Source of the DNA: a virus
Taxonomy: Duplodnaviria > Caudoviricetes
Length of the DNA stretch: 56,609 bases
Virus record (IMG/VR): IMGVR_UViG_3300028615_000096
Span: 1 to 56,609 of that record
Strand: one strand, 5' to 3'
Below the pieces are notes generated by a model. It searched no databases. It was not told the DNA's origin and saw nothing but the letters and a program-made list of their open reading frames with translations. Positions 1-36,185 of the stretch are shown piece after piece. The number at the start of each line of letters is the position of its first letter. Position 1 is the stretch's first letter. Position numbers and translations under genes: made by a program.

Positions 1-1
1 C

Positions 2-316
2 AGCACGCTCAGTGGCGTGATGAAGGAGCTGGGCGTGGACCTCACCGAGGAGCAGGTCGAGAAGATGCTGGAGGCGCTTCCGGTGGAAGAGCCGCCGGCA
101 CCGGCCGCCACGCCCGAACCGGTGGCCAAGGCCGTCGAGACGGTCAACGAAGAGATGGCCAAGGTCATGAAGGCGGTGAGCGCGCTCACCGAGAAGGTGG
201 ACAAGGCACTGGTCCGGCCCGCAGCGCCGGCCAGCACGCCGAACGACGACGACCCGCCCAGCTCGGGTCCCGAGAACCTCGGTCACCCGTCCCGTGGCGG
301 GCGCTGGGTGCTCTGA
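2..316 (+). CDS. 3' end of head scaffold / prohead protease (XkdF-like) gene, truncated by window start
   Basis: Frame is open to the window edge. Acidic, Pro/Ala-rich coiled-coil C-terminus directly upstream of the capsid gene. Confidence 0.55.
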   Translation, partial: STLSGVMKELGVDLTEEQVEKMLEALPVEEPPAPAATPEPVAKAVETVNEEMAKVMKAVSALTEKVDKALVRPAAPASTPNDDDPPSSGPENLGHPSRGGRWVL

Positions 317-349
317 AGCTGCTCTACTGAGGAGAGGAACGGCAAAGTC

Positions 350-1282
350 ATGAAGGAAAACCGCGACATCATCCAGAAGGCTGATTTCCTCCTGGCGCAG
401 CTTGCACCGGGTGGTCTGCTTCAGCCGGCGCAGGCCGATCGGTTCATCCGGTTGGCCATCGACCGCAGCGTGCTCATCAGCCAGATGCAGCGGATCGACA
501 TGCGCAGCCCCAAGGAGCTGCGTGAGAAGATCCGCTACGGCAGCCGCGCCCTCCGGAAGGGCACGGAGGCCACGGCGTTGCCCGAGGCGCTCCGCTCCCG
601 GCCGGACACCGACAAGGTCGAGCTGGACGCCCAGCTCGTGAAGGCGGAGACGCGCCTCTCCTTCGAGGCCCTGGAGGACTCCATCGAGCGCGGCAACTTC
701 GAGCAGACGGTGCGGGACACCATGGCCGAGCGCATCAGCCTCGACCTGGAGGACCTGGCCGTCAACGGCGACACCGCCTCCGCGGACAACCTGCTGTCCA
801 CCCTGGACGGCTTCCGCAAGCAGGCCACCACCAACATCTCCCTCGCGGGCGGTGCCACGCTGAACCGCGAGATCCTGAAGGACGCGCTCAAGACGATGCC
901 GAGCGAGTTCCGCCGCGACAAGCGCTCCATGCGCTTCATCACGGCGGACGAGGCCGTCATCGACTACCAGGAGTTCCTGGGCGACCGTCAGACCATGATG
1001 GGCGATGACCACGTGAGCGGCACCACCGTGGCGCCGTTCCAGGGCATCCCCCTGATGGACGTGCCGGTCTTCCCGGTCAACCTGGGCGGCGGCACCGACG
1101 AGACGGAGATGCTGTTCACCGATCCGTCCAACATGCTGTTCGGCGTGTGGCGCAACATCCGCCTGGACACGGACCGCGACATCTCCGCGGGCGTGTTCGT
1201 CATCGTCGTCACCGCCCGCGTGGACTTCAAGTTCGCGCACGAGCCGGCGGTCGTGAAGACCACGGGAATCAAGGCGGTCTGA
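350..1282 (+). CDS. Major capsid protein (HK97-like fold)
   Basis: 310 aa; motifs GGLLQPAQADRFI, DLEDLAVNGD, GIPLMDVP, TARVDFKF typical of XkdG-like capsids; GGAG RBS; position in operon. Confidence 0.9.
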   Translation: MKENRDIIQKADFLLAQLAPGGLLQPAQADRFIRLAIDRSVLISQMQRIDMRSPKELREKIRYGSRALRKGTEATALPEALRSRPDTDKVELDAQLVKAETRLSFEALEDSIERGNFEQTVRDTMAERISLDLEDLAVNGDTASADNLLSTLDGFRKQATTNISLAGGATLNREILKDALKTMPSEFRRDKRSMRFITADEAVIDYQEFLGDRQTMMGDDHVSGTTVAPFQGIPLMDVPVFPVNLGGGTDETEMLFTDPSNMLFGVWRNIRLDTDRDISAGVFVIVVTARVDFKFAHEPAVVKTTGIKAV

Positions 1283-1318
1283 GGCCCGGCGCCCTAGCCC
1301 AACAAGGAGAGAACTGAC

Positions 1319-1642
1319 ATGCCGATCACCGTCAACAGCCTGGGCAACAGCGGCGGCCAGCCGTCCGCACCGCTTCGGGCAGTCGAACTCGACGTGGACC
1401 TCGACAACAGCTACCCCACGGGCGGCTACGACGTCACGGCAGATCTGCCGGACGGGTCCACCCTCCGATGGAGCCCCCGGGTTCAGGTCAGCGACGGCAC
1501 CACGCCGATCCTGCTGGCCCTGGTCCAGGTGGGAACCTCCATCTTCGTCCAGGCGTTCGTCGAAGCGACGGGCGCCGAGGTGGCCAACACCACCGACCTC
1601 TCCGCCTACACGGGCGTCAAGGTCGGCGGCATGGTGGAGTGA
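1319..1642 (+). CDS. Head decoration/accessory protein
   Basis: 107 aa after capsid; AAGGAG RBS; SYPTGGY and EVANTTDLS motifs. Confidence 0.6.
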   Translation: MPITVNSLGNSGGQPSAPLRAVELDVDLDNSYPTGGYDVTADLPDGSTLRWSPRVQVSDGTTPILLALVQVGTSIFVQAFVEATGAEVANTTDLSAYTGVKVGGMVE

Positions 1643-1648
1643 TCTGCC

Positions 1649-1876
1649 ATGCCCGCGGTCAAGACCAACCACTTCGAGGGTGGCCGGAACCTCACCAAGC
1701 ACGGTGACTCCGGCGCCGACCTCGCATCCATCCTCCGGTCGAGCGTGGATGACAACACGGAGCTGCGCACGCAGTTCATCGCGCTGCTCGCCAAGCTGGA
1801 CGCAGATGTCGGTGTCACGGACACGGATTATGCGGCCACCTTGACGCCGGCCGCGCTGACGCTTACCAAGGCGTAA
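1649..1876 (+). CDS. Small head-associated protein
   Basis: 75 aa in operon with a helical LLAKLDAD segment. Confidence 0.6.
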   Translation: MPAVKTNHFEGGRNLTKHGDSGADLASILRSSVDDNTELRTQFIALLAKLDADVGVTDTDYAATLTPAALTLTKA

Positions 1877-1895
1877 GAGCATCACACGGGAGCTG

Positions 1896-1924
1896 ACGCC
1901 CCGGCCTGCCGCCGGGGCGTTGGT
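1896..1924 (+). terminator. GC hairpin, possible terminator or stabiliser after head genes
   Basis: ACGCCCCGGC-ctgcc-GCCGGGGCGT 10-bp stem followed by a weak T tract. Confidence 0.4.
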
Positions 1925-1950
1925 ATCTCGGGGGAAGGTGAGAGGAATCC

Positions 1951-2475
1951 ATGGCAGAGGCAGATCTCTACGTACGGCTGGCTCCGTACAACAAGCGTCT
2001 GGGGCAGCTGGCACGCCGGTGCACGCTGGGCGGCCGCACGTTCGTGGCCGGCGAGTGGTACACGCTGCCCGCGGACTGGGCCAAGCGCCTGAACTCGATC
2101 AGACAGGACTCCGGCGCACCCATGTTCGAGGTGATGGACGGCGAGGAGTTCAACGCCACCGCGCGCCGTGAGATGGCGGCGGCGATGACGGCCGCCGGAC
2201 TCAGCGGCCTGGCCGCGCAGGGCGCCGCGGAGTTCCCCACCGTCACCAAGCAGAAGGAAGGCCCCAAGGAGAGCGCCTTCGCCGGCCTCGACAAGGCCGT
2301 GGGTGAGGTGAACATGGGTGGCCCGCCCGCGGCCGCCGTGCCCGTCGACTCCCCCGCCGCAGCGCCGCCGGCCACGTCCGTGGACGTGACCAGCGCGGAC
2401 GTGGCGCCGCCGTCCCAGCTGGACGACGGCGACGACGGTGACGGGGACGGCGATGACGGCGAGCAGCCCTACTGA
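1951..2475 (+). CDS. Hypothetical head-module protein with low-complexity acidic tail
   Basis: 174 aa; GAGG RBS; high GC3 codon bias. Confidence 0.75.
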   Translation: MAEADLYVRLAPYNKRLGQLARRCTLGGRTFVAGEWYTLPADWAKRLNSIRQDSGAPMFEVMDGEEFNATARREMAAAMTAAGLSGLAAQGAAEFPTVTKQKEGPKESAFAGLDKAVGEVNMGGPPAAAVPVDSPAAAPPATSVDVTSADVAPPSQLDDGDDGDGDGDDGEQPY

Positions 2476-4243
2476 GGCTGAGGCCGCCGCCCGCCAAGCC
2501 AACGATCCGGAACGCTGGGATCAGCTGTGGGGCAAGGAGGGCGCAGGTACGTGGCGCAAGCGCGCGCTGGCGGACGTCTACGATCGCATTTGCCACATCA
2601 TGCCCGAGGGCGCCCGCGTCGTTGACGTAGGCGGGGGCGTGGGGGCGCTGGCAGAGTTGCTCATGCAGGCCGGCTGCGCCTCCGTGGAGGTCTGGGACCA
2701 CTCGGAGACCGCCCTGGAGGTTGCGGAGCGCAACGAGGGCGTGACGGGCCGCCTGGTGGACCTGGAGGCGGTAGGAGAGCCTCTGCCCCTCATCGAGAAC
2801 GCGGACGTGGTGGTTGCCACGGAGCTGCTGGAGCACCTTTCCGCCTACGCGCGGGACACGCTGGTCACGGACATCTGCCAGGCAGAGGGCGTACACTCCG
2901 CGATCTTCTCCATCCCCAACGACTGCATGGGGCCGGACGTGGAGCCGCAGCACTCCATCCAGTGGACCGCCATGGACTTCAAGCGGTTCCTGCAGGACTA
3001 CTTCTCGGACGTCCGCATCGAGGTCTTCGGCCGCTACCAGATGGCGGTGTGCGGCGAGATGGCCAAGAAGGCGTTCACCCTCTCGGTGTGCCTGCCGGTG
3101 CGCGACGAGGAGGCGGACCTGGAGCGCGTGCTGGCGTCCTTCCGCGGCGCCGCAGACCAGATCGTGGTGGGCGTGGACCCGCGCACGGTGGACGGCACGC
3201 GGGAGATCGCGGCCAAGTACGCGGACCTGGTCTTCGAGCTGGAGGACCCGGCTCTGGAGGATCTGGATAACGCCAACCTGTACGTGGACGCGGACAAGGT
3301 GCGCCCGGACGGCGTGCACTTCAGTTGGGTCCGCAACCAGTGCATGGACCGGTGCACTGGGGACTGGATCTTCATGACGGAGGGGCACGAGTCGCTGGCG
3401 GAAGGCCAGGACCGGCTGCTCAACCTGGACGCGCTGGTGCCGGAGAACTCGCCGGTCTGCATGGTCTGGCGGTCCGGCCAGGGCCAGCGCTGGGCGTTCC
3501 CGTGGCTCTGCCGCCGGGAGGCTGGGTTCCGGTATGAGCGCAGCACGCACAACGAGCTGGTGTTCCCGCGCAAGACGCTGGTGACCAAGCTCCCGGGCGT
3601 GCGTACGGACCACTTCCGCGACCACTCGCGCTCGGAGTCCCGCGCCGCGCAGCGTCGGGCGCAGAACCGCCGCACGCTGATGGACGACTGGATGAGCAGG
3701 AAGAACGAGCAGAGCTTGTTCTACCTGGGGCAGGAGTGGCGCGGCATCGACCCCGCGCGCTCCATCGATCGCCTGCAGGCGTTCCTCGCCACCTCGAACA
3801 ACGGCTGCAACAAGTATCAAGCCCGGTTGGTGCTTGCAAAGGAGTTGTACGGCCTTGGCAAGCGGCGTGAGGCTGAAGAAGTTCTGCTTGGTTGCGCACA
3901 GGACGACTGGAGCCGCACGGAGCATTGGATCTGGCTCGGAGACATCAACTTCGAGCACGAAGACTACGCGCGCGCCTACCAGTTCTATCGTTACGCCACG
4001 ACCTCGATCGGTGACCCGCCGTTCACGGTGTGGTGGATCTCCATGGACAGCTACACGTACCTACCCGCGCAGCGCATGACGGCAGCTGCGGCCGCGGTGG
4101 GGCGCCTCGAAGAGGCTTGCCACTGGGCGGAAAAAGCGGCATCGTTGTTGCCGAGCGATACGCCCGACGCCGTACGGGCGGAAGCAGAGGCAAACGTTCG
4201 GCTTCTCCGGGAGACACTCGATGGATCAGCAGAGCCTAGTTGA
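2453..4243 (+). CDS. Class I SAM methyltransferase - GT2 glycosyltransferase - TPR fusion
   Basis: VVDVGGGVG SAM motif and ELLEHL; then LSVCLPVRDEEADLERVLAS...D.T.EIA and FSWVRNQ...CTGDWIF (GT2); helical TPR-like C-terminus. Start could be GTG 2438. Confidence 0.85.
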   Translation: MTASSPTEAEAAARQANDPERWDQLWGKEGAGTWRKRALADVYDRICHIMPEGARVVDVGGGVGALAELLMQAGCASVEVWDHSETALEVAERNEGVTGRLVDLEAVGEPLPLIENADVVVATELLEHLSAYARDTLVTDICQAEGVHSAIFSIPNDCMGPDVEPQHSIQWTAMDFKRFLQDYFSDVRIEVFGRYQMAVCGEMAKKAFTLSVCLPVRDEEADLERVLASFRGAADQIVVGVDPRTVDGTREIAAKYADLVFELEDPALEDLDNANLYVDADKVRPDGVHFSWVRNQCMDRCTGDWIFMTEGHESLAEGQDRLLNLDALVPENSPVCMVWRSGQGQRWAFPWLCRREAGFRYERSTHNELVFPRKTLVTKLPGVRTDHFRDHSRSESRAAQRRAQNRRTLMDDWMSRKNEQSLFYLGQEWRGIDPARSIDRLQAFLATSNNGCNKYQARLVLAKELYGLGKRREAEEVLLGCAQDDWSRTEHWIWLGDINFEHEDYARAYQFYRYATTSIGDPPFTVWWISMDSYTYLPAQRMTAAAAAVGRLEEACHWAEKAASLLPSDTPDAVRAEAEANVRLLRETLDGSAEPS

Positions 4244-4715
4244 AGACACGATCAAGGCCGGCGGCACCGTCACCGTCGAGGTCATCCGTGACGGGAAGTA
4301 CGGACCGGAGGTCATCCAGAAGGTGGTGGTCCCCAACCTGGTCGTGAACATCGGCAAGCGGCAGCTGCTGCGTCTGGGCTCCGGCCTCCAGTCCAAGTTC
4401 TTCGACCAGTTCCGCATCGGCACCTCGCCGGCGGCCCCCGCGGTGGGCAACAGCAACGTGCTGAGCCCGGTGGCCGGCACGCTGAACACGGCGGACAGCA
4501 AGACCTTCATCAGCATCACGACTGGCCACGAGTGGGTCATCAGCTACCCCTCCGGCGGTGGTTCGATCTCCGCCAACGGCATCGCGGAGGTGGCGCTGCT
4601 GAACGAGAACACGTCGCCCGGCGGCTCGGCGCTCATGCGCGCGCTGATCTCGCCCACGGTCAACAAGACCACGGCCGACAAGCTGAAGATCACGTACCAG
4701 CTCCGCGTGACCTGA
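4221..4715 (+). CDS. Small beta-rich structural protein (collar/fibre subunit-like)
   Basis: 164 aa; NLVVNIGK...RIGTS...IAEVALLN...VNKTTADKLKITYQL pattern seen in phage collar-fibre-like proteins. Confidence 0.7.
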   Translation: MDQQSLVEDTIKAGGTVTVEVIRDGKYGPEVIQKVVVPNLVVNIGKRQLLRLGSGLQSKFFDQFRIGTSPAAPAVGNSNVLSPVAGTLNTADSKTFISITTGHEWVISYPSGGGSISANGIAEVALLNENTSPGGSALMRALISPTVNKTTADKLKITYQLRVT

Positions 4716-4906
4716 TGGCCGGTGTCATCCGGGACAGGCTTGAGGCTGTGGACCGGGTCACGGCGACGACGACCCGGGAGCCAGAACCGATCAAGCACCC
4801 CTGCCCCAAGTGCGGCAAGGGGTCCCGGCAGCACAAGAAGAGGGGCGTGCGCATCTGCGCCGCCCGCACCTGTCGCGCCGTCTTCTCCGAGGGTACGCTG
4901 CACTGA
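4715..4906 (+). CDS. Small zinc-ribbon protein
   Basis: TGATG coupling to upstream gene; CPKC...CAARTC; 63 aa. Confidence 0.6.
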   Translation: MAGVIRDRLEAVDRVTATTTREPEPIKHPCPKCGKGSRQHKKRGVRICAARTCRAVFSEGTLH

Positions 4907-4969
4907 GGCCCGGGCGTACGCCGCCCCGTTCGGGCGCCACAGTCTTGGCGGCACTGAGCGAGGTGGACG

Positions 4970-5422
4970 ATGCTTCAGGCTATTTTGGTGGTGTTGATCG
5001 GGGCTTGGGCGGTGTTCGGCACCTCGACCCCGGAGGATGCGTTGGCGGCGCACCGCGACGGTGCGTACGTGGAGCTGGAGAGCCCCGCGGAGTTGGGGGA
5101 GCAGCTGCACGCGCAGTTGAGCGGGCCGCTGGCGGCCGGCGACCTGAACGCCTACTTCACGGTGCGCCACACGGGGCACAAGCGCGACTCCATGGGAGTG
5201 GACGTGCACGTGTGGGAGGGGGAGCCCTACACTGAGGGCGCCACCGTCGCGTGCGTGATCTACGTGGACCACGCGGTGCCCGCGCGCGATCCGCGGTTCC
5301 CGATCCACAAGCAGTTCAGCTGCCCCACAGCCGTTGCGGACCCCTGGGTGGAGCTGGAGGTGGTCTCGGTCATTGGCTCCGACGTCGGGCTGCTCATCGA
5401 CTACATGGCCATGGAGCAGTGA
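4970..5422 (+). CDS. Secreted/membrane-anchored beta-sandwich protein
   Basis: GAGG RBS; hydrophobic N-terminus MLQAILVVLIGAWAVFG; similar to the next ORF. Confidence 0.7.
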   Translation: MLQAILVVLIGAWAVFGTSTPEDALAAHRDGAYVELESPAELGEQLHAQLSGPLAAGDLNAYFTVRHTGHKRDSMGVDVHVWEGEPYTEGATVACVIYVDHAVPARDPRFPIHKQFSCPTAVADPWVELEVVSVIGSDVGLLIDYMAMEQ

Positions 5423-5425
5423 CAC

Positions 5426-6109
5426 GTGGCGATCCTCGTCCCCATTGCCAGCCGCCTGACCGGCACGTGGTCGGTCAACGGCGCTGCGTCTGCGCACGCG
5501 GCGCTGTCGGATGGTTCTGAGGCGAGCGACATCCAGACGGACGAGGTGAATACCGCGCGCCTGGTGGTGCAGATGAGCCCCGGCGCGATCTCGCAGGAGG
5601 GCGATCTCACCTACCGGGTGCGCATCGAGCACAACGGCAACCCGCAGGACAGCAGCGAGGCGACCGTCAACGTCTACCAGGGCGACCCCGATGCCGGAGG
5701 ACGCCTGGCCCTGGATCTGTTCAACGACATGGGCATCCCGCGCAACACGCAGACCGTGGAGCGCACGCTGACGCGCCCGCAGCAGCGCGCGCTCGGCAAC
5801 CTCGACGACGTGTGGCTGGAGGTGTTCATCGGCCGCAACGATGGCGGGGTGACCATCTACTGGTTCGAGTTGGAGGTGCCGGACGATCCGGTGGGCACCT
5901 GGAACTTCGACCTGAGCGCGGTACCTCTCAACACCCTGGTGTGGTTCCAGATGACCGATGGCCGGGCGCGGCAGGGGCGCCGGTTGTCCAACCTGGAGTA
6001 TGACGACGGCGCGGGCAACGCCATCGAACTGGACCAGCACAACTTCCCCAAGGACGCAGACGGCAAGCGAGAGGCATCTCGCGCTGTGATCGCCTGGGGA
6101 GCTATCTAA
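5426..6109 (+). CDS. Beta-sandwich virion accessory protein
   Basis: 227 aa in operon; shares GDL...H.G...DS...V.V..G.P motif with 4970-5422. Confidence 0.7.
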   Translation: MAILVPIASRLTGTWSVNGAASAHAALSDGSEASDIQTDEVNTARLVVQMSPGAISQEGDLTYRVRIEHNGNPQDSSEATVNVYQGDPDAGGRLALDLFNDMGIPRNTQTVERTLTRPQQRALGNLDDVWLEVFIGRNDGGVTIYWFELEVPDDPVGTWNFDLSAVPLNTLVWFQMTDGRARQGRRLSNLEYDDGAGNAIELDQHNFPKDADGKREASRAVIAWGAI

Positions 6110-6112
6110 GAT

Positions 6113-9100
6113 ATGGCGATCCCGACCGTCGAAGGCGTGGTCACCGCCAACGCCACTTCCGGCACCTCAGCCACGCCGGACATCAGCACCATCGACGGCG
6201 GCAGTGCGCCTACAGTGGGCGATCTGATCTTTGTGCACCTGTGCATCCAGGATGCCTCAGCCACCCTTGACCAGCACATTGACGCGCCGGACGGCTACCA
6301 CAATGGAGGGCACACCTACAACAACGAGGTCGACGCCATCTTCTGGAAGATCTGGGAGAGCGGCGATGACACCACACCGACGTTCTCCTGGCCGAACAGC
6401 GGTGACAATGCGATCGCGGTGTACTGCATCCGGGGTGTGGACCAGACCCGGCCCATCGCGAGGCAGTCCATCAACCGCTACGACGACTCCAACTTCGTGT
6501 GGCTCTCGGAGACCACACCCGTGGCGGACTGCCTGGCTTTGGCGTTGGCGAGCTGCGACGACAACCGATCGGGCTCTACCGCTCCGAGCGGGTGGACAGA
6601 GCAGGTTGACCAGGAAGCGGGCACTAACATCGGCCAGTGGGGCATGACGCAAGGGTTCGCGTCTGCTTCCAGCTCCACAGGTACGGCCACGATGGACATC
6701 GGCGGTGTCGGCACCGAGACCAACCAGAGCCGCATGATCATCCTCCAGCCGCCGCAGACGGCGACTCCGAAGGACATCCGCGTAGCGACGGGCTCCCTGA
6801 CTTCGCCGACGAGCACCGGCAACCAAGACATCACGGGCCTCGGATTCGACTGCAAGGCGCTCATCATCTATGGGATGCGCGTCAACTCCACGACTGTGCT
6901 CACGGATGCCGAGTACGTGCATGGCATCGGCGCCGACGACGGAGTGACAACGGCGGCGCAGCGGTGCGCGGGCGTGTGGAAGGACAACGGGGTCAGTGCG
7001 GCCACGGGCTGGAGCCGCAATGGCGAGATCATCGCCATGTACTTCGTGCCCAACACGACTTTGGGCAGTCCTGATCTGCTGGCGGCATACAGCCGCATCA
7101 CGGACGGCTTCCGGCTCAACTGGACCGCGGTAGACACGTCAGGTTGGGTGTTCAACTACATCGCCTTCGGAGGCGCCGACCTGGAAGCGGTGTGCGGAGC
7201 CGAGCAGGGTTCGACCTCGCCTGTGTCCGGTCTTCCGTGGCGCCCGGATATGGTGCACGTGTGCGGCCAGAACCTTGACAGCGATGCCGATCAGCTTCGT
7301 AACGGTGATCTTCTTGGGCTCATTACCGTGGGCTACCTCGACCCGCAGGCCGGTATGGGATGGAACGTCCCTCTCGACCTCAACACCTCCTCGGCGTTGC
7401 GCGAGAATGCGTTCTACTCCCAGGTGAACAGTGGCGCGCTGACGTACGACCTCCAGTTTGCGCAGACCACGAGCGATGGATGGAGTTGGGACGGGAGTGA
7501 TACCGACTACTTCTTCTACCTTGCGCTCAACTGGGATAACGCCACCTACTTCCCGGCACAGCTCGACATCCTACAGGCTGACACCTCCGGTACCGGAGGA
7601 CAGGATCAGGACGTGCCGCGCTTCGGAGTGGGGCAAACCTTCACCACCAAGAAGCTGGTTCACGTGGTGCTCAACGATCCGGACACCAACGTGTCTGCGG
7701 GCGACTTCGGGCATGGTGAGGGGCACGTCAAGTTCAGCTACTCCGTTGTGGACGAGGACGTGGTGGCCTTCGGCTTCGACGACTCGGCGAACGGCGCTGA
7801 GAGACGGCGTCAGCCGGACGACACGTTCTTGATGGCCACGCCGCCGGACTTGGATAGCCCGGGCAAGATCGGTGACTTCGTTGACCTGGACACCATTGAC
7901 TGGGCGACGAACAACACCACCGGCTACTTGATCGGCATGTTCACCCTGGGCTTCATCGGCCAGGAGTACGACCGCACGGCCACGGACACCATGGGGGTGG
8001 CGGACACCACGGACCGGGAAGTGAACTACTCCCGGACCGACATCGACACGGCCAGCCTCGCGGAGGCGGTCGAGCGTGTGGTGGACTACGTGCGGTCTGC
8101 CACGGACGCGGTGTCTCTGGCGGAAGTGCTGCAGGCCAGCATGACCTTCGACAGGCTGCTCACGGACGCCATCACGTTGGTGGACGTGGTCACCTACGTG
8201 TTCACCCCGGGCGCGGGCGGTGAGCTGTTCGAGCGTACGATCACGGACACCATCACGTTGGCGGAGACGATCGCGCGGAACATGGAGATGGAGCGCGAGC
8301 AGGCGGACACCATGACCCTGGCAGAAGCCGTGGCGCGGGAGCACGACGCCACGCGGCCGGTGCTGGACACCTTGTCCCTGCTCGACAGCACGCAGGCCAC
8401 CATGACTTTCGATCGCGTGCTCACTGATGTCATCACGTTGGCTGAGGCCGTGGCGCGCGTGGCGGATTACAGCCGCACCCAGACGGATGTGGCTCCGCTG
8501 GTGGAGTCCGTGCTTCGCGAGGTCGACTACTCGCGGCTCATCACCGACGTCATCACGCTGGCGGAGTTCGTCCAGGCCGGCTTCATCTTCGAGCGGGACG
8601 TCACGGACGCGATCGGCCTGGCAGACTCTGTGCAGCGGGAGGTGGACTACTCCCGCCCCATCACGGATGCGGTGACGTTGGCGGAGGTGACGGCGCGCAG
8701 CTTGGACACGTCCCGCGCGGTCACGGATGCCGTGGGCCTCACGGAGGGTGTGCTCCGGGAGGTGGACTACTCCCGCACGATCGCAGACGCCATTACACTG
8801 GTCGATACGGCGCAGGCCGGTTTCATCTTTGCGCGCACCGTGGTGGACGTCATCACGCTCGCAGAGGCGTTGGCGCGTGAGGCGGATTACAGCCGCCCCC
8901 TTGCTGACGTGGCGCCTTTGGCCGAGGCCGTGCAGCGGGAGGTGGACTACTCCCGGGCCGTGGTGGACGCCATCTCCCTTGTGGACGTGGTGCAGGCCGG
9001 CTTCATCTTCGAGCGCCTGATCGCGGACACCATCTCGTTGGTCGACGCGGTGGCGGCGGAGATGACTTTTGATCGCGTGCTCACGGACACGGTGGGCACT

Positions 9101-10498
9101 GTCGACACGGTTGCGCGGGTGGTCGACTACTCACGGGCTGTGGTGGACTTGATTGCGTTGGCGGAGGTGACGGCGCGCAGCCTGGAGGCGGAGCGCACGC
9201 TCACAGACGCGGTTGCTGTGCCGGACACCGTGCTTCGGGAGGTGGACTACAGCCGATCCGTGACCGACGCGATCAGCTTGGCGGACACGCTGCTGCGCAC
9301 CGTGGAGCTGGGCGTGCTGGTGCAGGACACCGTCACGTTGGCGGAGGTTCTGGTCCACCAGGCCAACTACTCCCGTGTGATCGGGGATCAGATTACGCTG
9401 ATCGAGGCCATCCAGACTTCGGTGGCTGGCCTCATCAGTGTGCTCATCCAAGAGACGCTGTCGCTGGCAGACACGGTGCAGCGGGAAGTCGACTACGTGC
9501 GCGCGCCCAGTGACGCGATCACGTTGGCTGACACTGCGGTGGGCGGGCTGCAGATGGACCGCAACCTGGCGGACACCGTGACACTGGTGGACACGCTGGT
9601 GCGCGAGGCCGTGTACGACCGCACGTTCCTGGACGCTCTGGGCCTGGTGGATACCACAGCGCGCGTCGTGTCCTTCGATCGGGCGGTGGCGGACACCATC
9701 ACGCTGGCGGAGACGCTGGCCCGCACGCTGCAGGCGGACCGCACCATCACGGACACCGTGGTCGTTGCGGAGTCCGTTGCACGGGAAGTGGACTACACCC
9801 GCGCGGTGGTGGACCTGATCTCCTTGCTGGACGCTACGCTCCGCAGCCTCACGGCAGAGCGCATCGTGCAGGACGCCATCACGCTGGCGGACTTGTTGGC
9901 CGCGGGCTTCATTTTTGAGCGTGACCTGGTGGACACGATCACGCTGGCAGAAACGGTGCAGCGTGAGTTGGACGCGTCCAGGACGCAGATCGATACCGCG
10001 GTGCTGCAGGAGGGCGTGCAGCGCGAGGTGAGCTACAGCCGCTCCCAGGCAGACACGGTCGGCGTCGCGGACGTGCTGCTGCGCGCGATGGAGTTCACCA
10101 CCAGCATCGTGGACTCCGTCAGCCTCCTCGACACCACTGCGCGCGCTGCCGACTACAGTCGCACCGTGGTGGACACCATCACGCTGGCGGATTTGCTGTT
10201 CCTGATCCAGGGGCTGATCGAGGTCCTGATCCAGGACAGCATCGGTCTCGCAGACAGCACCGCTCGCACAGCCACCTTCGGCCGCACCGTTGCGGACACC
10301 ATGAGCGTGGACGACACCGGGGGCATTGCGCGTGAGGTGGTGTACAGCAGGCTGTATGCTGAGACCGTGGTGGCTGTTGACATCTGCTTCCAGGAAGGTC
10401 CTCGGCTCCGCGCAACTGGTATAGACTACGATTCGGACGGCGCTCCCCTGGACGCAGTGCCCATGGAGCCGCCATTCATCATTCCGGGAGGAAGCTAG
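6113..10498 (+). CDS. Large fibre/adhesin protein: N-terminal beta domains plus about 42 tandem 19-aa repeats
   Basis: 1461 aa; residues about 617-1425 repeat D(T/A)I(T/S)LA(E/D)xVxRExDYSRxx. Confidence 0.85.
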   Translation: MAIPTVEGVVTANATSGTSATPDISTIDGGSAPTVGDLIFVHLCIQDASATLDQHIDAPDGYHNGGHTYNNEVDAIFWKIWESGDDTTPTFSWPNSGDNAIAVYCIRGVDQTRPIARQSINRYDDSNFVWLSETTPVADCLALALASCDDNRSGSTAPSGWTEQVDQEAGTNIGQWGMTQGFASASSSTGTATMDIGGVGTETNQSRMIILQPPQTATPKDIRVATGSLTSPTSTGNQDITGLGFDCKALIIYGMRVNSTTVLTDAEYVHGIGADDGVTTAAQRCAGVWKDNGVSAATGWSRNGEIIAMYFVPNTTLGSPDLLAAYSRITDGFRLNWTAVDTSGWVFNYIAFGGADLEAVCGAEQGSTSPVSGLPWRPDMVHVCGQNLDSDADQLRNGDLLGLITVGYLDPQAGMGWNVPLDLNTSSALRENAFYSQVNSGALTYDLQFAQTTSDGWSWDGSDTDYFFYLALNWDNATYFPAQLDILQADTSGTGGQDQDVPRFGVGQTFTTKKLVHVVLNDPDTNVSAGDFGHGEGHVKFSYSVVDEDVVAFGFDDSANGAERRRQPDDTFLMATPPDLDSPGKIGDFVDLDTIDWATNNTTGYLIGMFTLGFIGQEYDRTATDTMGVADTTDREVNYSRTDIDTASLAEAVERVVDYVRSATDAVSLAEVLQASMTFDRLLTDAITLVDVVTYVFTPGAGGELFERTITDTITLAETIARNMEMEREQADTMTLAEAVAREHDATRPVLDTLSLLDSTQATMTFDRVLTDVITLAEAVARVADYSRTQTDVAPLVESVLREVDYSRLITDVITLAEFVQAGFIFERDVTDAIGLADSVQREVDYSRPITDAVTLAEVTARSLDTSRAVTDAVGLTEGVLREVDYSRTIADAITLVDTAQAGFIFARTVVDVITLAEALAREADYSRPLADVAPLAEAVQREVDYSRAVVDAISLVDVVQAGFIFERLIADTISLVDAVAAEMTFDRVLTDTVGTVDTVARVVDYSRAVVDLIALAEVTARSLEAERTLTDAVAVPDTVLREVDYSRSVTDAISLADTLLRTVELGVLVQDTVTLAEVLVHQANYSRVIGDQITLIEAIQTSVAGLISVLIQETLSLADTVQREVDYVRAPSDAITLADTAVGGLQMDRNLADTVTLVDTLVREAVYDRTFLDALGLVDTTARVVSFDRAVADTITLAETLARTLQADRTITDTVVVAESVAREVDYTRAVVDLISLLDATLRSLTAERIVQDAITLADLLAAGFIFERDLVDTITLAETVQRELDASRTQIDTAVLQEGVQREVSYSRSQADTVGVADVLLRAMEFTTSIVDSVSLLDTTARAADYSRTVVDTITLADLLFLIQGLIEVLIQDSIGLADSTARTATFGRTVADTMSVDDTGGIAREVVYSRLYAETVVAVDICFQEGPRLRATGIDYDSDGAPLDAVPMEPPFIIPGGS
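7964..10385 (+). repeat. Degenerate 57-bp (19-aa) coding tandem repeat
   Basis: Recurring GACACCATCACGCTGGCGGA and GAGGTGGACTACTCCCG words at about 57-bp period. Confidence 0.9.
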
Positions 10499-11566
10499 AT
10501 GCCCAGCCTTGGACGAGGAGAAGCCAGCACCTGCGGGAACCCGAAGCTGGACATCTTCATGCGGCTGGGCGGCGCGCTGGTGGACGTCAACAGCCTGGAG
10601 TTCCAGATCTTCGAGAAGATCACCAACCCGCTGGTGCCTGTGCAGGTCTACCCGGCGGTGGGGCGCGCCGCGGTGGACATCGCCAACGACTGCCCCACCG
10701 GTCACCGTTTGGGGACTGGCCACTACGTGGCGGAGTACACCGTCCCCACGGCCGCGCCCACAGGCACCTACGAGGTGCGCTGGTTCTTCAACCTGACGGC
10801 CACCACCCCGGAGCAGGAGTTCCGGGAGGAGTTCGAGGTGCTGCCCGGGGCTGTGGCCTCCAGCGGAGGCGCCTACACCACGATCCAGGCGATGCGTGAT
10901 GAAGGGGTGCCCGCGACGGTCAGTGACGAGCGCCTCATGCGCCTCATCTTCGAGGCGTCCGACTACATCGACAAGGTCACCGGGCGCTGGTTCGAGCCGC
11001 GCACCGCCGTCTATACCTTCGACGGCTCGCAGACCGTTTCCATGTTGCTGGAGCAGCCGATCATCGCGGTCAGCTCCGTGAGCGTGGACGGCGTTGCCTT
11101 CGCCACCAGCGACATCATCGTCTACAACCGCCACATCTCGGAGGGGCTGCGGAACCCGGATGACCGCGAGAACCCCAAGGTGGAGCTGAACCAGCCGCTG
11201 GACGACGATCTGCTGTTCAAGATCGGCCTGAAGGTCTTCCCGCGCGGCCAACTCAACATCAGCATCGACGGCGTCTTCGGCTACACCGACTACGACGGGA
11301 GCGCCACGGGTGTGACTCCGGCCCTCATCGAGAACGCGTGCAAGCGCTTGGTCATCCGTGGGCTCACGCCGCTGTACGACGCGGACCCCACGGACCTGGC
11401 CTCCAGCGCGCACCGCATCACGGAGTTGCGCACGCGCGACCAGTGGATCCGCTACGGCGACCCCAACCGCTTGGGCCTGGCCGCGCCCGGGCCGTTCACC
11501 GGTGACCGGGAGATCGACAACATCTTGCTGATGTTCCGGCGGCCGCCGCTCGTGAGGGCTGTGTGA
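10499..11566 (+). CDS. Head-tail adaptor with N-terminal Ig-like domain
   Basis: YTTIQAMRDEG...ASDYIDKVTGRWF...FPRGQLNI..GVFGY...ALIENACKRLV connector pattern. Confidence 0.75.
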   Translation: MPSLGRGEASTCGNPKLDIFMRLGGALVDVNSLEFQIFEKITNPLVPVQVYPAVGRAAVDIANDCPTGHRLGTGHYVAEYTVPTAAPTGTYEVRWFFNLTATTPEQEFREEFEVLPGAVASSGGAYTTIQAMRDEGVPATVSDERLMRLIFEASDYIDKVTGRWFEPRTAVYTFDGSQTVSMLLEQPIIAVSSVSVDGVAFATSDIIVYNRHISEGLRNPDDRENPKVELNQPLDDDLLFKIGLKVFPRGQLNISIDGVFGYTDYDGSATGVTPALIENACKRLVIRGLTPLYDADPTDLASSAHRITELRTRDQWIRYGDPNRLGLAAPGPFTGDREIDNILLMFRRPPLVRAV

Positions 11567-11567
11567 G

Positions 11568-12098
11568 ATGGCACGCGGACGCCTCATCTTCCCGTTCTTG
11601 TTCGACATCGCGCAGCTGGACACACAGGCCACTGACGCAGACCCGGACGGTGCGGGACCGCTGACCAGCGGTTACGACGACGTGTTCCGCGAGCCCGTGG
11701 TGGTGCCGCCGTCCAGCGGCTCCTCGCGCGGTGTGGTGGCGCGCCAGGAGACGATCATCCGGGTGAAGGCGCAGTTCGAAGAGGGCAACTTCGAGGACCT
11801 GGAGATGATGTCCACGGGGCGCAGCCCCTCTTCGCAGATCCGCCTGTGCCTGCACTACCGCGACCTGGAGAACGCGGGTCTGGTGGAGCTGGCAACGGGC
11901 CGTCCGCTGCTCCGGATCAACGATCGTTTGGTGGCCTGCTACAACCCGCGCACCGCCGTGCTCATCGAGCAGTTTCCGGATCCGCCCGGGCTCTATTGCA
12001 CGGAGGTGCAGTCCCGCTCGTTCGGCCTCGGCCCTCACCGCAACCTGCTGCTGCTCACGTTCCAGGAGCGTGACGTCTCTGCGCGGAGCCCGGGCTGA
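11568..12098 (+). CDS. Head closure / neck protein
   Basis: 176 aa; position after adaptor; SGYDDVFREP motif. Confidence 0.6.
   Translation: MARGRLIFPFLFDIAQLDTQATDADPDGAGPLTSGYDDVFREPVVVPPSSGSSRGVVARQETIIRVKAQFEEGNFEDLEMMSTGRSPSSQIRLCLHYRDLENAGLVELATGRPLLRINDRLVACYNPRTAVLIEQFPDPPGLYCTEVQSRSFGLGPHRNLLLLTFQERDVSARSPG

Positions 12099-16263: not shown

Positions 16264-16264
<1 letters not shown>
15890..16264 (+). CDS. Hypothetical tail protein
   Basis: 124 aa, coupled on both sides (TGAATG, TGATG). Confidence 0.7.
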
Positions 16265-18534
<2,270 letters not shown>

Positions 18535-29471: not shown

Positions 29472-31828
29472 GCTTCGTGGTCTCCGTTGAGCGCCTCACG
29501 ATCACGCTGGCAGACACAGTGGCGTCTGCAACCGCCAACCTGACGCAGGGACAGTCCGTCTCGGATTGTTTCCCGATCGCCAGTTGGGATGCGGACAGTA
29601 GCGCCACCAACTACGACGACACGCAGGTCATGATCGAGTTCTTGACCGGGCCCGACCGCGTGCAGGTGTCCCGGGGCGGCACCTCGGGACAGGTGGTTGT
29701 GGAAGTGGCCGTGGTGGAGGTGGACCCACTGCTCGTACAGGTGGAGACCAACACTGGATCCATGCCGCCGTTCACGATCGGCTTCAACAGCAGTGTGCCG
29801 ATCAACACCGCGTTGTACTTCAGCAGGGCGTTCGGCCTGCACTACAGCAAGGGCACAGGCAGTGGGCTGCCTCGCAACTTCCTGACGCGCCTGGAACTCA
29901 GCGACATCAACGTCGACATCGGCACGAACGTGGACCGCGGCTCTGCGTCCACAGGCACGATCGACTTCATCAACTACGTCATCGCCGACATCGACGGCAA
30001 CCAGTTCAACACGCAGCAGTTCTCCATCTCCTTGGCGTCTAGTGCTGGGTCCGGGCAGGACACTCTGACCACAGCGGTGGACGAGGCGGTTTCTGCGCTG
30101 TTCGGCTCGTGCACCAATGCGTCCACCAGCACAGATCCGCAAGAATCATCCTTGGAGTTGGAACTTGTCGGAGGTTCATCCGGCGCAAGGACGCAGGTGG
30201 AGGTGCGGCGTAACGCCGTTGCTGTGGCTGCGGAGATCCGCGGCGCTGTGGTGACGTTCTTGGACGGCACCTCGGTGCAGCAGATCAACCAGACGATTCC
30301 TTCCAGCTCAGCCAGCGCAGGCTTTGCCATGTCCTCGGTGAACCTTGCACTGGCGGCTGGTAGCACGCCCATTCAACCGGGTAGCCGCATCCAGGAGAAC
30401 ATCGGCGCCGGGGGCGGCTACGGACGTACGCGCCTCAACACAGCTACGACGGGCACCGTCTCCGTAGGCACTGCACTGACTGCTGCGATCGACTGGCAGG
30501 CGGAGGTCATCGCGTTCGCCTCCGGGCAGACGTTCGAGCGTACCATCACGGACACCATCGGGTTGGCGGACAGTCCGCCTGTGGCGGAGATGACCTTTGA
30601 CCGCGTGCTGCAAGACACCATCGCGGCCGTGGACGTGGTCACGCGTTGGGTCTCCTACGTCCGTAGCGTCACGGACAGCGTCACGGTTACAGACCGTGCC
30701 GGCCTGGGCGCCCCCGTCTTCGTGCGCAATGTGCAGCCTGCCGCGGGCACAACTATCCCGCGCTGGCAGGTGGTGGAGTTCGACGTGGCCAGCGCAGGCA
30801 ATCTCACGCTGCTCGCCATCGACTCCGTGCTGCCCTCTGGCTTGCTGGAGCCGGTCTACGCTGACGGATCCGGGTTCACGTCTGCGTTCGCCATCGGTTC
30901 CTCGGCCCTCGCACAGAACTTCGGCAACGACGCTGGGCTTCACGTGGCAGTTGCGCGCCGAGAGGGCTGGGGTGCGTCTCCCATTCGACTGCGGATCACA
31001 GCACAGGCTGGCGGAATTGCTCCGCAGGTCTTCGAGGTCGTGATTGCGGACACCGTGGGTCTGGCGGACACGGTGTCCGGCGTCATCGATGTGCCGCAGG
31101 ACCCCACTTCGATCATTGCTGCTTCCGACCAGTTGGCCTGGCACCGCTGGGACATGGGCATCACACACGCCACTCCGCCCGAAGTGGAGCAGTGGGATGA
31201 CCAAACGCTGGACGCCTACCCGTTGGACGTGGTCGAGGACTTCCGTTACCCGGATCTCGTCGGATCCGGTGGGTTGAACAACCACGGCTACCTCACGTTC
31301 GACAAGTCTCTCCAGGCACATATTGCGCTGCCTGGTACCGGGATCATGCCGACGCCGATGGAGCCGCACATCTATCTGGTTTACCGCTGGCAGGCTGTAC
31401 CGCTCAGCGGCAACCACTACATGGTGTCGATCGGCCAGGGCAACTTGTTCCCACCCAACGACAACGTGTTGGCCATGGTCGCGACGGCCACCGGGTGGTT
31501 CCACATCATCCGCACGGGCAGTGGGTTCTTCTTCATGACCCCGTCGATCACACACGACACCAACTGGCACCTTGCCGAGCTGTGGTATGACGGTGCGAAT
31601 TTGAACTTCCGGCAGGACAACGGCAGCGTCACTTCCGTGGCAGCCAACGGCACGTTCAACGTGAGCCTGCAGAGCGCCTACATCATCGGTTCTTCCGACC
31701 CCAACGGCGGCAGTTCCACTGCGGCTTACGACGTTGGAGAGTGCTTCTCCACGGCGCAGCAGGTCAGCGGGCCGAACCACACCGCGCTCATCGCCTATCT
31801 CAACGGCTACTGGAACGGGGGCTGGTAG
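29468..31828 (+). CDS. Multidomain tail fibre/adhesin with C-terminal LamG-like domain
   Basis: 786 aa; contains copies of the 19-aa repeat, an Ig-like domain shared with the previous ORF, and a DTNWHLAELWYDG lectin-like end. Confidence 0.75.
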   Translation: MSFVVSVERLTITLADTVASATANLTQGQSVSDCFPIASWDADSSATNYDDTQVMIEFLTGPDRVQVSRGGTSGQVVVEVAVVEVDPLLVQVETNTGSMPPFTIGFNSSVPINTALYFSRAFGLHYSKGTGSGLPRNFLTRLELSDINVDIGTNVDRGSASTGTIDFINYVIADIDGNQFNTQQFSISLASSAGSGQDTLTTAVDEAVSALFGSCTNASTSTDPQESSLELELVGGSSGARTQVEVRRNAVAVAAEIRGAVVTFLDGTSVQQINQTIPSSSASAGFAMSSVNLALAAGSTPIQPGSRIQENIGAGGGYGRTRLNTATTGTVSVGTALTAAIDWQAEVIAFASGQTFERTITDTIGLADSPPVAEMTFDRVLQDTIAAVDVVTRWVSYVRSVTDSVTVTDRAGLGAPVFVRNVQPAAGTTIPRWQVVEFDVASAGNLTLLAIDSVLPSGLLEPVYADGSGFTSAFAIGSSALAQNFGNDAGLHVAVARREGWGASPIRLRITAQAGGIAPQVFEVVIADTVGLADTVSGVIDVPQDPTSIIAASDQLAWHRWDMGITHATPPEVEQWDDQTLDAYPLDVVEDFRYPDLVGSGGLNNHGYLTFDKSLQAHIALPGTGIMPTPMEPHIYLVYRWQAVPLSGNHYMVSIGQGNLFPPNDNVLAMVATATGWFHIIRTGSGFFFMTPSITHDTNWHLAELWYDGANLNFRQDNGSVTSVAANGTFNVSLQSAYIIGSSDPNGGSSTAAYDVGECFSTAQQVSGPNHTALIAYLNGYWNGGW

Positions 31829-35789: not shown

Positions 35790-36185
35790 ATGTCCAGTCC
35801 CTTTGCGCTCAACAGAGGTATCACCCAGCAGCGCATCGCTTCGGCGAGCGCGCCTGACGGGTCGTACCTTTTCGAGCTTGGGGACAGCAGCAACGGTGAC
35901 GCGAGGTTGGCCGCGGGGGACTACCACGAGGTCGACCAGGACATCGTCATCCCACCGGAGATCTATCTGATCCGACCCACCGTGAAGCTGCGGTTGCGGG
36001 ATGACCTTCCAGCAGGGCGCTCCTGGTTGCTGCGCGCCTTCTTGAACGGCACTGAGGTCTACGCCAGGACCTTCACCATCAAGCCGCCCACCAGTAGGAC
36101 GCTCACCGACATCGCGATCCCGCTCAACGACGCCAACGGCGCACCGAGCACGGACAACATCGCCTTCCGCCTGGAGCTTGCCTGA
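35790..36185 (+). CDS. Hypothetical structural protein
   Basis: 131 aa, beta-rich, in operon. Confidence 0.65.
   Translation: MSSPFALNRGITQQRIASASAPDGSYLFELGDSSNGDARLAAGDYHEVDQDIVIPPEIYLIRPTVKLRLRDDLPAGRSWLLRAFLNGTEVYARTFTIKPPTSRTLTDIAIPLNDANGAPSTDNIAFRLELA

Follow-up and report, generated by a model that had tools for sequence, protein, structure and literature searches.

A 20-residue repeat and its obligate-looking small partner in a putative accessory-fiber cassette of an uncultured myovirus

Introduction

The shafts of adenovirus and reovirus fibers are triple β-spirals, in which chains with short repeats of about 15 amino acids (aa), a conserved Gly/Pro turn, and inward-facing hydrophobic residues form a trimer. 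The number of repeats sets the length of the shaft, and a receptor-binding head is located at its end. In chaperone-usher pili, the fold of a small β-sandwich subunit is completed by an amphipathic strand in which hydrophobic residues alternate. This strand comes from the N-terminus of the neighboring subunit, and the pilus has no separate core chain with many repeats. Here we describe a protein of 1461 aa with forty 20-aa repeats and a conserved protein of 164 aa, designated g164. Both are encoded in a 56.6-kb stretch of viral DNA (IMG/VR virus record IMGVR_UViG_3300028615_000096, positions 1 to 56,609, hereafter the window), which is a fragment of an uncultured high-GC myovirus and about 54% complete.

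Fibers on phage heads have also been described. The report on phi29 gp8.5, a protein of 280 aa (PMC6542822), describes a homotrimer that projects from the head, the stem of which contains short sequence repeats and forms a helix-turn-helix supercoil and the N-terminal base of which serves as the anchor. According to the same text, the base is completed by β-strands donated by the capsid protein, which is a precedent for strand complementation in the anchoring of head fibers (PMC6542822). Phage 7-7-1 bears long and flexible capsid fibers of 88–114 nm on its myovirus head, which make the first contact with the host, and the fiber protein is stated to be unassigned (PMC12796354).

An earlier note on the window, made from its letters, proposed that the repeats are donor strands for the 164-aa protein in a head or neck filament. 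We tentatively favor another possible reading, an accessory fiber with an oligomeric repeat stalk whose length is set by the unit number. In this fiber, g164 would be a dedicated, probably abundant partner, and an enzyme encoded upstream would modify one of the two proteins.

Results

Architecture of the repeat protein

Both open reading frames (ORFs) are real (Table 1). Autocorrelation of the C-terminal part of the 1461-aa protein gave identities of 0.291, 0.290, and 0.291 at lags 20, 40, and 60, and the best lag in the first 630 aa reached only 0.095, indicating no periodicity there. Anchoring on the motif D-x-h-x-h-x-[DE] (h, hydrophobic residue) placed 40 units at aa 614–1425. The 39 spacings between the units are 20 aa in 35 cases, 22 aa in two, and 21 and 27 aa in one each. 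The identity at lag 20 is 0.308, compared with 0.043 at lag 19 and 0.041 at lag 21, while the best lag between 5 and 60 in 1000 shuffles averaged 0.118 and reached 0.138 at most. The strictly periodic part of about 810 aa, which the earlier note had pointed out, is thus borne out far beyond shuffles. Its period is, however, 20 aa and not 19, and 40 units are counted instead of about 42.

The core motif of the units is R-x-h-x-D-x-[IV]-x-L-x-[DE]. The most conserved positions among the 40 units are D/E18 (40/40), D12 (38/40), R8 (36/40), L16 (33/40), I/V14 (30/40), Y/F6 (29/40), and R2 (27/40), so that the motif D-x-I-x-L-x-D/E had been read correctly. The other even positions (V/L4, V/I/L10, and V/L20) are also conserved, and column entropy averages 1.56 bits for the even and 2.39 bits for the odd positions. 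Tandem Repeats Finder, applied to positions 3000–12000, detected only a 46-bp array at 5086–5131 and no DNA-level repeat in the repeat region, suggesting that the units are old and have been maintained at the protein level.

The N-terminal part, which the earlier note had called adhesin-like, has no match in Pfam, PHROG, or NCBIfam, and a sub-part around aa 220–383 recurs in other proteins. Likewise, no Pfam family (LRR, RTX, YD/RHS, choline-binding, and others included) matched the 1461-aa protein or its homologue P0002 at E ≤ 0.01, and no PHROG, including the tape-measure families, matched the repeat protein. The protein stops at a conserved S-G-G and is without the last ~40 aa found in seven relatives (L011, L019, L025, L026, L028, L032, and L034). 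The adaptor gene begins on the very next base (10499). The 612-aa non-repetitive head, the 40 × 20-aa array, and the short C-terminal domain together make up a long shaft between distinct termini, which is the layout of a fiber.

Joint occurrence of g164 and the repeats

A search with g164 alone found 29 viral loci, which include four pairs with identical numbers and four contigs already seen. Three of the loci end too soon past g164 to be judged. In 23 of the 26 assessable loci, a downstream ORF matches the repeat region (tblastn). L028 and L034 encode short proteins (186–251 aa) that have few repeats and the conserved C-terminal domain directly before the adaptor gene, and L016 has repeat ORFs elsewhere on the same 452-kb contig. 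Outside the repeats, the g164-linked repeat proteins divide into many groups that are unrelated to one another. Five of the proteins have the 612-aa head, the C-terminal domain is found in these five, in L019, and in the short forms, and the remaining non-repeat parts are unique. Since the non-repeat parts are mostly unrelated, the repeats are the only element common to all. The arrangement in G001 should be noted. The enzyme and g164 genes lie between the neck and sheath genes in this contig, and the repeats are located about 20 kb away, inside a baseplate protein.

The absence of the two elements also coincides. Seven contigs without g164 are also without repeats, namely five close relatives of the window and two with weak head matches, and two of the seven are at least 98% complete. 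A discordant contig, with g164 or the repeats alone, was not found among the about 40 contigs examined. The contigs holding g164 or repeats had all been reached via g164, the N-terminal head, or the adaptor and never via the repeats, and the seven contigs with neither element were found through the adaptor and the head. Across the loci, the identity to the window is 52–68% for g164, 46–56% for the enzyme, 34–40% for the adaptor, and 25–28% for the capsid protein. Judging from these sequences, the functional link between g164 and the repeat array, as supposed in the earlier note, is real: the two are jointly present or absent in every contig examined, even when the repeats lie in unrelated proteins or the genes are distant.

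Genes of one cassette are co-inherited whether or not their products touch each other, and g164 could then be an independent abundant virion protein, such as a decoration or a collar knob, that shares the cassette with a self-sufficient homotrimeric stalk. A head-stalk-anchor layout with lectin-type heads is typical of phage fibers, and the predicted fold of g164 (see below) resembles the N-terminal halves of annotated tail fiber proteins and small tail and neck proteins. However, the link holds when the g164 and repeat genes are tens of kb apart (G001 and G002) and when everything except the repeats is exchanged, and none of the contigs examined has repeats but no g164. Moreover, a capsid-binding decoration should diverge with the capsid, but g164 does not. 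We therefore regard this explanation as unlikely, with some real chance left to it, and retain the accessory fiber with g164 as a dedicated partner.

Polarity and place of the putative fiber

The repeat protein of G001 has the same head and repeats as the window protein, with a DUF5050-type insert between them, followed by a Tail_P2_I baseplate domain (23.5 bits, cut-off 20.6). Its gene comes after that of a J-like wedge protein and lies downstream of the tape measure gene. The C-terminus is probably the anchored end in G001, judging from this domain order. In the head-proximal cassettes, the C-terminal ~80 aa, encoded beside the adaptor gene, are conserved and the N-terminus is variable. The N-terminal head is read as distal because of the anchored C-terminus in G001 and this conservation in the cassettes.

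The occurrence of the head and repeats in the baseplate protein of G001 also means that the repeats are not confined to head or neck filaments, contrary to what had been proposed. Units of the same kind (R-x-h-x-D-x-h-x-h-x-D) are present in a 786-aa protein of the baseplate module of the window (29468–31828) at aa about 352–412 and 528–550. Four of them score against the hidden Markov model (HMM) of the unit, and three related contigs have no counterpart of this protein.

Distribution and sequence pattern of the repeat family

Seven homologues of 1220–2092 aa share the head with 34–54% identity, and the differences among six of them are mainly located in the repeats. An eighth (P0008) is a weaker match that covers only 21% of the head. 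The period of 20 was found again in the homologues. A profile search with the repeats only gave 8778 cluster representatives (clusters at 50% identity) at E ≤ 1e-3, 4401 at 1e-10, and 919 at 1e-30, and the best 150 of the 8778 are 571–4608 aa long. From 133 of 151 proteins, 1454 in-register units were obtained by a picking rule of which D12 and D18 were a part. In these units, R8 is present in 67%, and positions 10, 14, 16, and 20 are hydrophobic in 66–83%. Odd positions are mostly Ser, Thr, or Ala (40–66% Ser + Thr). Pro does not exceed 5% at any position, and Gly does not exceed 8% except at position 15 (21%). Variability is greatest at positions 3–7. The composition and the two-residue alternation favor an extended, β-type unit with one conserved face, as far as sequence can indicate.

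The number of units ranges from about 5 to 55. Motif counts were 8 to 54 in full-size proteins and ~5 in minimal forms; motifs were counted since the unit HMM made from the window repeats was too composition-biased to count units in relatives. Such wide variation among relatives would be expected of an element that sets the length, as had been suggested.

Among 40 sampled family members, Pfam detected a carbohydrate-linked domain in 10 and nothing above threshold in 30. The domains are Laminin_G_3 in seven (N-terminal in six) and CBM96, Beta_helix, and an arabinofuranosidase catalytic domain in one each, suggesting that the repeat is often the stalk of such heads. Sequence searches of the PDB with whole-protein and repeat profiles gave only chance-level matches (designed helical repeats, E 0.022–0.24), and the only ESM Atlas matches were unnamed viral clusters, below 0.9. 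No match to the repeat protein, to g164, or to a low-GC repeat region was found in cultured phage records, and a literature search for a described 20-residue fiber repeat found nothing relevant among the papers listed. Locus searches with four single family members and with the window protein alone found no viral contig.

One feature of two relatives is recorded separately. The 700-aa repeat protein beside g164 in L014 (10258–12369) and L015 ends in a hydrophobic stretch that resembles a transmembrane anchor, which is unexpected for a virion fiber.

Predicted fold and abundance of g164

Homologues of g164 number 378 at E ≤ 1e-3, and the best 120 of them are 58–74% identical and 157–203 aa long. 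No Pfam or NCBIfam family matches g164; its PHROG matches are 5417, of unknown function, and the N-terminal half of 4176, a "tail fiber protein." Among representative prokaryote genomes, eight pattern matches were found and none was confirmed. AlphaFold2 (AF2) predicted g164 alone (41-row alignment) as a closed β-sandwich of nine strands and two short helices, with a predicted local distance difference test (pLDDT) score of 85.8 and a predicted template modeling (pTM) score of 0.81. The 164-aa protein is thus β-rich, as the earlier note had it, but its gene is not directly upstream of the repeat gene, since three ORFs (63, 150, and 227 aa) lie between them.

The best solved match to the model is aa 380–508 of the 953-aa chain BD of the Haloferax virus HFTV1 tail (9h4p_BD; Z 11.6, root mean square deviation 2.9 over 128 residues). 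The next matches are small phage baseplate, fiber-adaptor, and neck proteins at Z 5.6–8.0, which the tool itself rates as borderline. Predicted viral structures (BFVD) gave 54 matches at E ≤ 0.001, including annotated tail fiber proteins of ~300 aa. The confident closed model and these fold matches suggest that the fold of g164 is self-contained and that phage tail and fiber assemblies use folds of its type. Matches to PRMT β-barrels (Z 3.4–4.3) were set aside as noise. The model suggests no missing strand and is still compatible with an added edge strand. A complex prediction of g164 with five repeat units, made without controls, gave a score of 0.00 in two runs and a mark of 0.32 and counts neither way.

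Codon usage served as a proxy for expression. The codon adaptation index (CAI) of g164 in the window, computed under four choices of the reference set, is 0.72–0.78. This value is third or fourth of 19 genes (fourth under three of the four sets), beside the capsid, sheath, and tube genes, and the CAI values of the enzyme and the repeat protein are 0.60–0.61 and 0.56–0.58, respectively. In ten relatives, with the capsid gene of each as the reference, g164 has a higher CAI than the enzyme (10 of 10), the repeat gene (6 of 6), and mostly also the adaptor (6 of 8). The G + C content at third codon positions (GC3) of g164 is within 0.03 of that of the capsid gene in eight of the ten. These values suggest that g164 is abundant, to the extent that codon usage reflects expression. 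A low copy number of the 164-aa protein, which the earlier note had named as evidence against its own proposal, is not obviously indicated.

In that proposal, a ruler-and-subunit filament, the array is extended, each unit completes one g164 by donating a strand, the unit number sets the length clad by g164, and the head is at the tip. Several observations would fit. g164 and the repeats are strictly present or absent together across unrelated architectures and separate loci, the unit number varies widely, and the repeat monomer does not fold alone in AF2. If g164 reads the conserved repeat face, its conservation beyond that of the capsid and adaptor proteins would be anticipated, and codon usage suggests abundant synthesis of g164 but not of the repeat protein. 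Twenty extended residues would span ~68 Å by our own arithmetic, which leaves room for a 164-aa domain. On the other hand, g164 is modeled as complete, so that donor-strand completion is not supported, and its fold type is an ordinary module inside tail and baseplate proteins. The capsid-like codon usage of g164 in phages with few units (L022, L028, and L034) does not fit a demand of one copy per repeat. To our knowledge, no virus has a ruler-and-subunit filament of this kind, and no precedent was found in the literature searched. Donor-strand completion along the array is therefore decidedly improbable. A broader idea is that g164 polymerizes on the array, each 20-aa unit taking up a single copy or a few, that the unit number sets the length of a two-component fiber outside the tail, and that the pair is reused on heads, necks, and baseplates of many uncultured phages; we consider this improbable. 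The accessory fiber, in which g164 may recognize the unit in another way, remains the reading that we favor.

Enzyme encoded upstream of g164

The first gene of the cassette encodes an enzyme with Methyltransf_23/25/11 matches at aa 39–148, a Glycos_transf_2 domain (family 2, GT2) at aa 216–324, and a weak TPR match at aa 465–521. PHROG 13126, β-1,4-glycosyltransferase, matches aa 221–575. The gene is directly upstream of g164 in 25 of the 29 g164-centered loci. L013, L029, and L033 have g164 and repeats without the enzyme, suggesting that the tie between g164 and the repeats is tighter than that between the enzyme and the repeats. The sequence of L038 does not extend upstream of g164 and allows no statement on the enzyme.

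The position of this gene raises the possibility that modification is the central function of the cassette. The Ser/Thr-rich face of the repeats or g164 would then be the substrate of the enzyme, and a heavily glycosylated surface fiber would be formed with g164 as an acceptor or a specificity factor. Besides the direct upstream position and the overlap with g164, the Ser + Thr content of the odd positions throughout the family is in accord with this possibility. N-x-[ST] triplets of g164 (N130-T131-S132 and N148-K149-T150) are located at nearly invariant positions. TPR modules often hold extended peptide substrates. However, g164 and the repeat protein occur without the enzyme in the three loci mentioned above, and modification is compatible with the accessory fiber rather than exclusive of it. 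As an explanation in its own right, it is quite improbable.

In the region upstream of g164 in L029 (7032–9965) and L033 (7306–9948), an ORF of 880–980 aa with period-9 repeats (identity 0.21–0.27) is found in place of the enzyme gene.

Cassette slot and neighboring genes

The gene order in the window is capsid, three small ORFs, enzyme, g164, Zn-ribbon ORF, 150-aa ORF, 227-aa ORF, repeat protein, and adaptor (Table 1), followed by a neck protein, sheath (16264–18534), tube, tape measure (20105–22720), and baseplate genes. The tape measure gene is canonical, with 14 PHROG matches, of which 10 are tape-measure families (best E 4.8e-38). Together with the sheath and tube genes, it indicates a myovirus whose tail already has an ordinary ruler. 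The order of enzyme, g164, repeat protein, and adaptor is kept in four related loci (L004–L007, of which L005 and L007 show identical numbers), and the capsid gene is upstream in three of the four. The five nearest contigs (adaptor 44–54% and capsid 46–78% identical) are without the enzyme, g164, and the repeats, and the sheath identity is 58–59% in the three cassette-less loci that reach the sheath gene. Since these nearest contigs hold other genes or almost nothing in the interval, the region between the capsid and adaptor genes is a variable cargo slot and the cassette is dispensable. We infer a portable accessory-fiber cassette in this slot.

The content of the slot (1283–10498 in the window) is hypervariable. 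L052 and L054 have nothing extra, and other close relatives have unrelated gene sets, such as ORFs of 515–528 aa and 659 aa in L051 and L053 and two Gly-rich paralogues in L055. A scan of positions 1–12000 for promoters and terminators found nothing exceeding shuffles.

Of the three ORFs between g164 and the repeat gene, the 63-aa ORF has a weak YacG-like Zn-ribbon match (E 0.0038) that is below the cut-off, and small ORFs with the same Cys pattern, single or doubled, are present between g164 and the repeat gene in L022, L028, and L034. The 150-aa and 227-aa ORFs have no family match, and the latter has a tblastn match in L026 (38% identity, E 5e-7).

Two genes outside the cassette are also recorded. 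A 663-aa ORF between the neck and sheath genes (12819–14810) has by far the lowest CAI (0.35) and GC3 (0.72) of the 19 genes and no family match, and it may have been acquired recently. Beyond the baseplate genes, a 642-aa ORF (36185–38113) matches the sheath-related PHROG 15814 at aa 31–126 (E 5.4e-14), resembling a sheath-like domain within a second protein.

Table 1. Positions of the cassette genes, repeat-protein parts, and landmarks in the window
Feature	Position	Strand	Remarks
Major capsid protein	350..1282	+	Pfam Phage_capsid, E 1.9e-12; PHROG 1623, E 4.3e-86; upstream landmark of the variable slot
Methyltransferase-glycosyltransferase-TPR enzyme, 601 aa	2438..4243	+	First cassette gene; end overlaps g164 start by 23 nt
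g164, 164-aa conserved β-sandwich, putative partner of the repeat array	4221..4715	+	Homologues, AF2 model, PHROG 5417 and 4176
Zn-ribbon ORF, 63 aa	4715..4906	+	C-P-x-C ... C-x-x-x-C; start overlaps g164 stop codon; translation without stop
150-aa ORF	4970..5422	+	Paralogue of the N-terminal 150 aa of the next ORF (BLASTP, 25% identity over 156 columns, E 2e-8)
227-aa ORF	5426..6109	+	Weakly similar to a 236-aa ORF at the same position in L004, E 0.005
Repeat protein, whole ORF	6113..10498	+	1461 aa
Non-repetitive N-terminal part, aa 1–613, putative distal head	6113..7951	+	Six homologues 49–54% identical (P0001–P0006), P0007 34%; no periodicity
Forty 20-aa units, aa 614–1425, putative stalk	7952..10387	+	35/39 spacings of 20
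C-terminal remnant, aa 1426–1461 and stop	10388..10498	+	First half of a ~80-aa domain conserved in relatives
Head-tail adaptor, 355 aa	10499..11566	+	PHROG 442, E 8.8e-16; downstream cassette boundary; directly 3' of the repeat gene in L004–L007
3–4 units of the same 20-aa repeat in the 786-aa baseplate-module protein	30488..30694	+	Match to aa 951–1018 of the repeat protein, E 8.2e-12

Discussion

The 1461-aa protein would be a modular fiber with a distal 612-aa N-terminal head and a stalk of forty 20-aa units. Each unit would have one conserved face (R, hydrophobic, D, hydrophobic, hydrophobic, D/E) and one Ser/Thr-rich face. The ~80-aa C-terminal domain seen in relatives would be on the virion side, and the stalk length would scale with the number of units. 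By likeness to other phage fibers, the stalk may be a homo-oligomer, probably a trimer. g164 would be a dedicated abundant partner that recognizes the repeat unit, either as an assembly factor or as a stoichiometric accessory subunit, and the methyltransferase-glycosyltransferase-TPR enzyme would probably modify g164 or the repeat protein. The repeat anatomy, the gene order of the cassette, the co-occurrence of g164 with the repeats, the degrees of conservation, and the codon usage are observed directly. For this mechanism, we infer the virion location, the polarity, the oligomeric state, and any physical contact between g164 and the repeats.

Several points weigh against the accessory fiber. 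Genes that move as one cassette would show part of the joint distribution of g164 and the repeats anyway, and many of the loci are relatives of one another. Among 2951 candidates, none is a fusion of g164 with repeats, although this is weak evidence. The window protein is without the last ~40 aa of the presumed anchor domain; this truncation may weaken the anchoring, or the half-domain may suffice. A location at the head or neck in this phage is suggested by gene position only. As for abundance, the CAI of g164 is below that of the adaptor in two of eight loci. In L004, with the sheath and tube genes as the reference and full ORFs, g164 is 18th of 20 and the capsid gene itself is not near the top, so that codon bias in L004 does not separate high-copy from other genes and is uninformative.

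The remaining points concern the fold of the repeats. AF2 gave a pLDDT of 29.6 and no secondary structure for a monomer of 19 units (10-row alignment), so that β structure, trimer formation, and self-sufficiency of the repeats are conjectural. In the window repeats, hydropathy has its spectral peak at a period of 3.33 (power 234) rather than at 2 (4.6), and the local hydrophobic moment at 100 degrees is larger than that at 180 degrees in 18 of 18 proteins. These observations suggest that a mixed unit of a strand and a short helix is possible. A monomeric solenoid, in which each chain would build its own stalk from one coil or hairpin per 20 aa with no oligomer, is very unlikely: regular units with one conserved face would suit it, and solenoids and hairpin stacks of about 20 residues per unit exist in other proteins, but AF2 usually folds regular solenoids and gave no structure here even with an alignment, Gly and Pro are rare at all positions but one and leave few places for tight turns, and no Pfam repeat family matches.

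The 20-aa unit is the mark of a large family that has neither a curated model nor a solved structure and that appears to supply uncultured phages with the stalks of lectin-headed surface proteins. The strict tie of this family to a small, highly conserved, probably abundant protein and to an enzyme that probably modifies proteins makes up a three-part arrangement that is unusual among phage fibers. A g164 that clads or templates the stalk would amount to a new way to build and measure viral filaments, and a g164 that acts in assembly would be a chaperone dedicated to a new fiber fold. Either way, the cassette would be a portable host-recognition module. The family is also a candidate class for the head or capsid fibers of some cultured phages in which the genes are unassigned. 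A head-proximal fiber gene with a long repeat stalk, as in the window, is the kind of gene to seek in phage 7-7-1 and for the head filament of phiCbK, although the repeat protein and g164 show no homology to cultured phage records and no link of these phages to the family is seen.

Among the known systems, tail tape measures are alike in that one long protein sets the length of a polymer of small subunits, and this likeness is the basis of the idea of a second tape measure. The repeat protein, in contrast, has a large globular head, is encoded outside the tail module, and matches no tape-measure family. Compared with chaperone-usher pili, g164 is modeled as complete, and the window has no chaperone or usher homologues. 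Tape measures and pili would accordingly be analogies for the ruler idea and not relatives. The triple β-spiral differs in repeat length and in its turn: the period in the window is 20, Pro stays within 5% at every position, and a single position has more than 8% Gly, so that the repeats do not follow the triple β-spiral pattern. The gene for phi29 gp8.5 lies just downstream of the major capsid gene, as does the repeat gene. However, the variable head of the window protein is N-terminal and its conserved end is C-terminal, and gp8.5 has no partner gene like g164. As a relative, gp8.5 was rejected after hhalign of the repeat alignment (probability 0.14%, 21 aligned columns). The closest functional analogues would thus be the phi29 gp8.5 head fiber and the triple β-spiral shafts of adenovirus and reovirus. 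Seen beside them, the cassette appears to encode a phage fiber whose stalk repeat is new and widespread and whose small partner looks obligate, and only the cladding or ruler model, if true, would make it new in kind.

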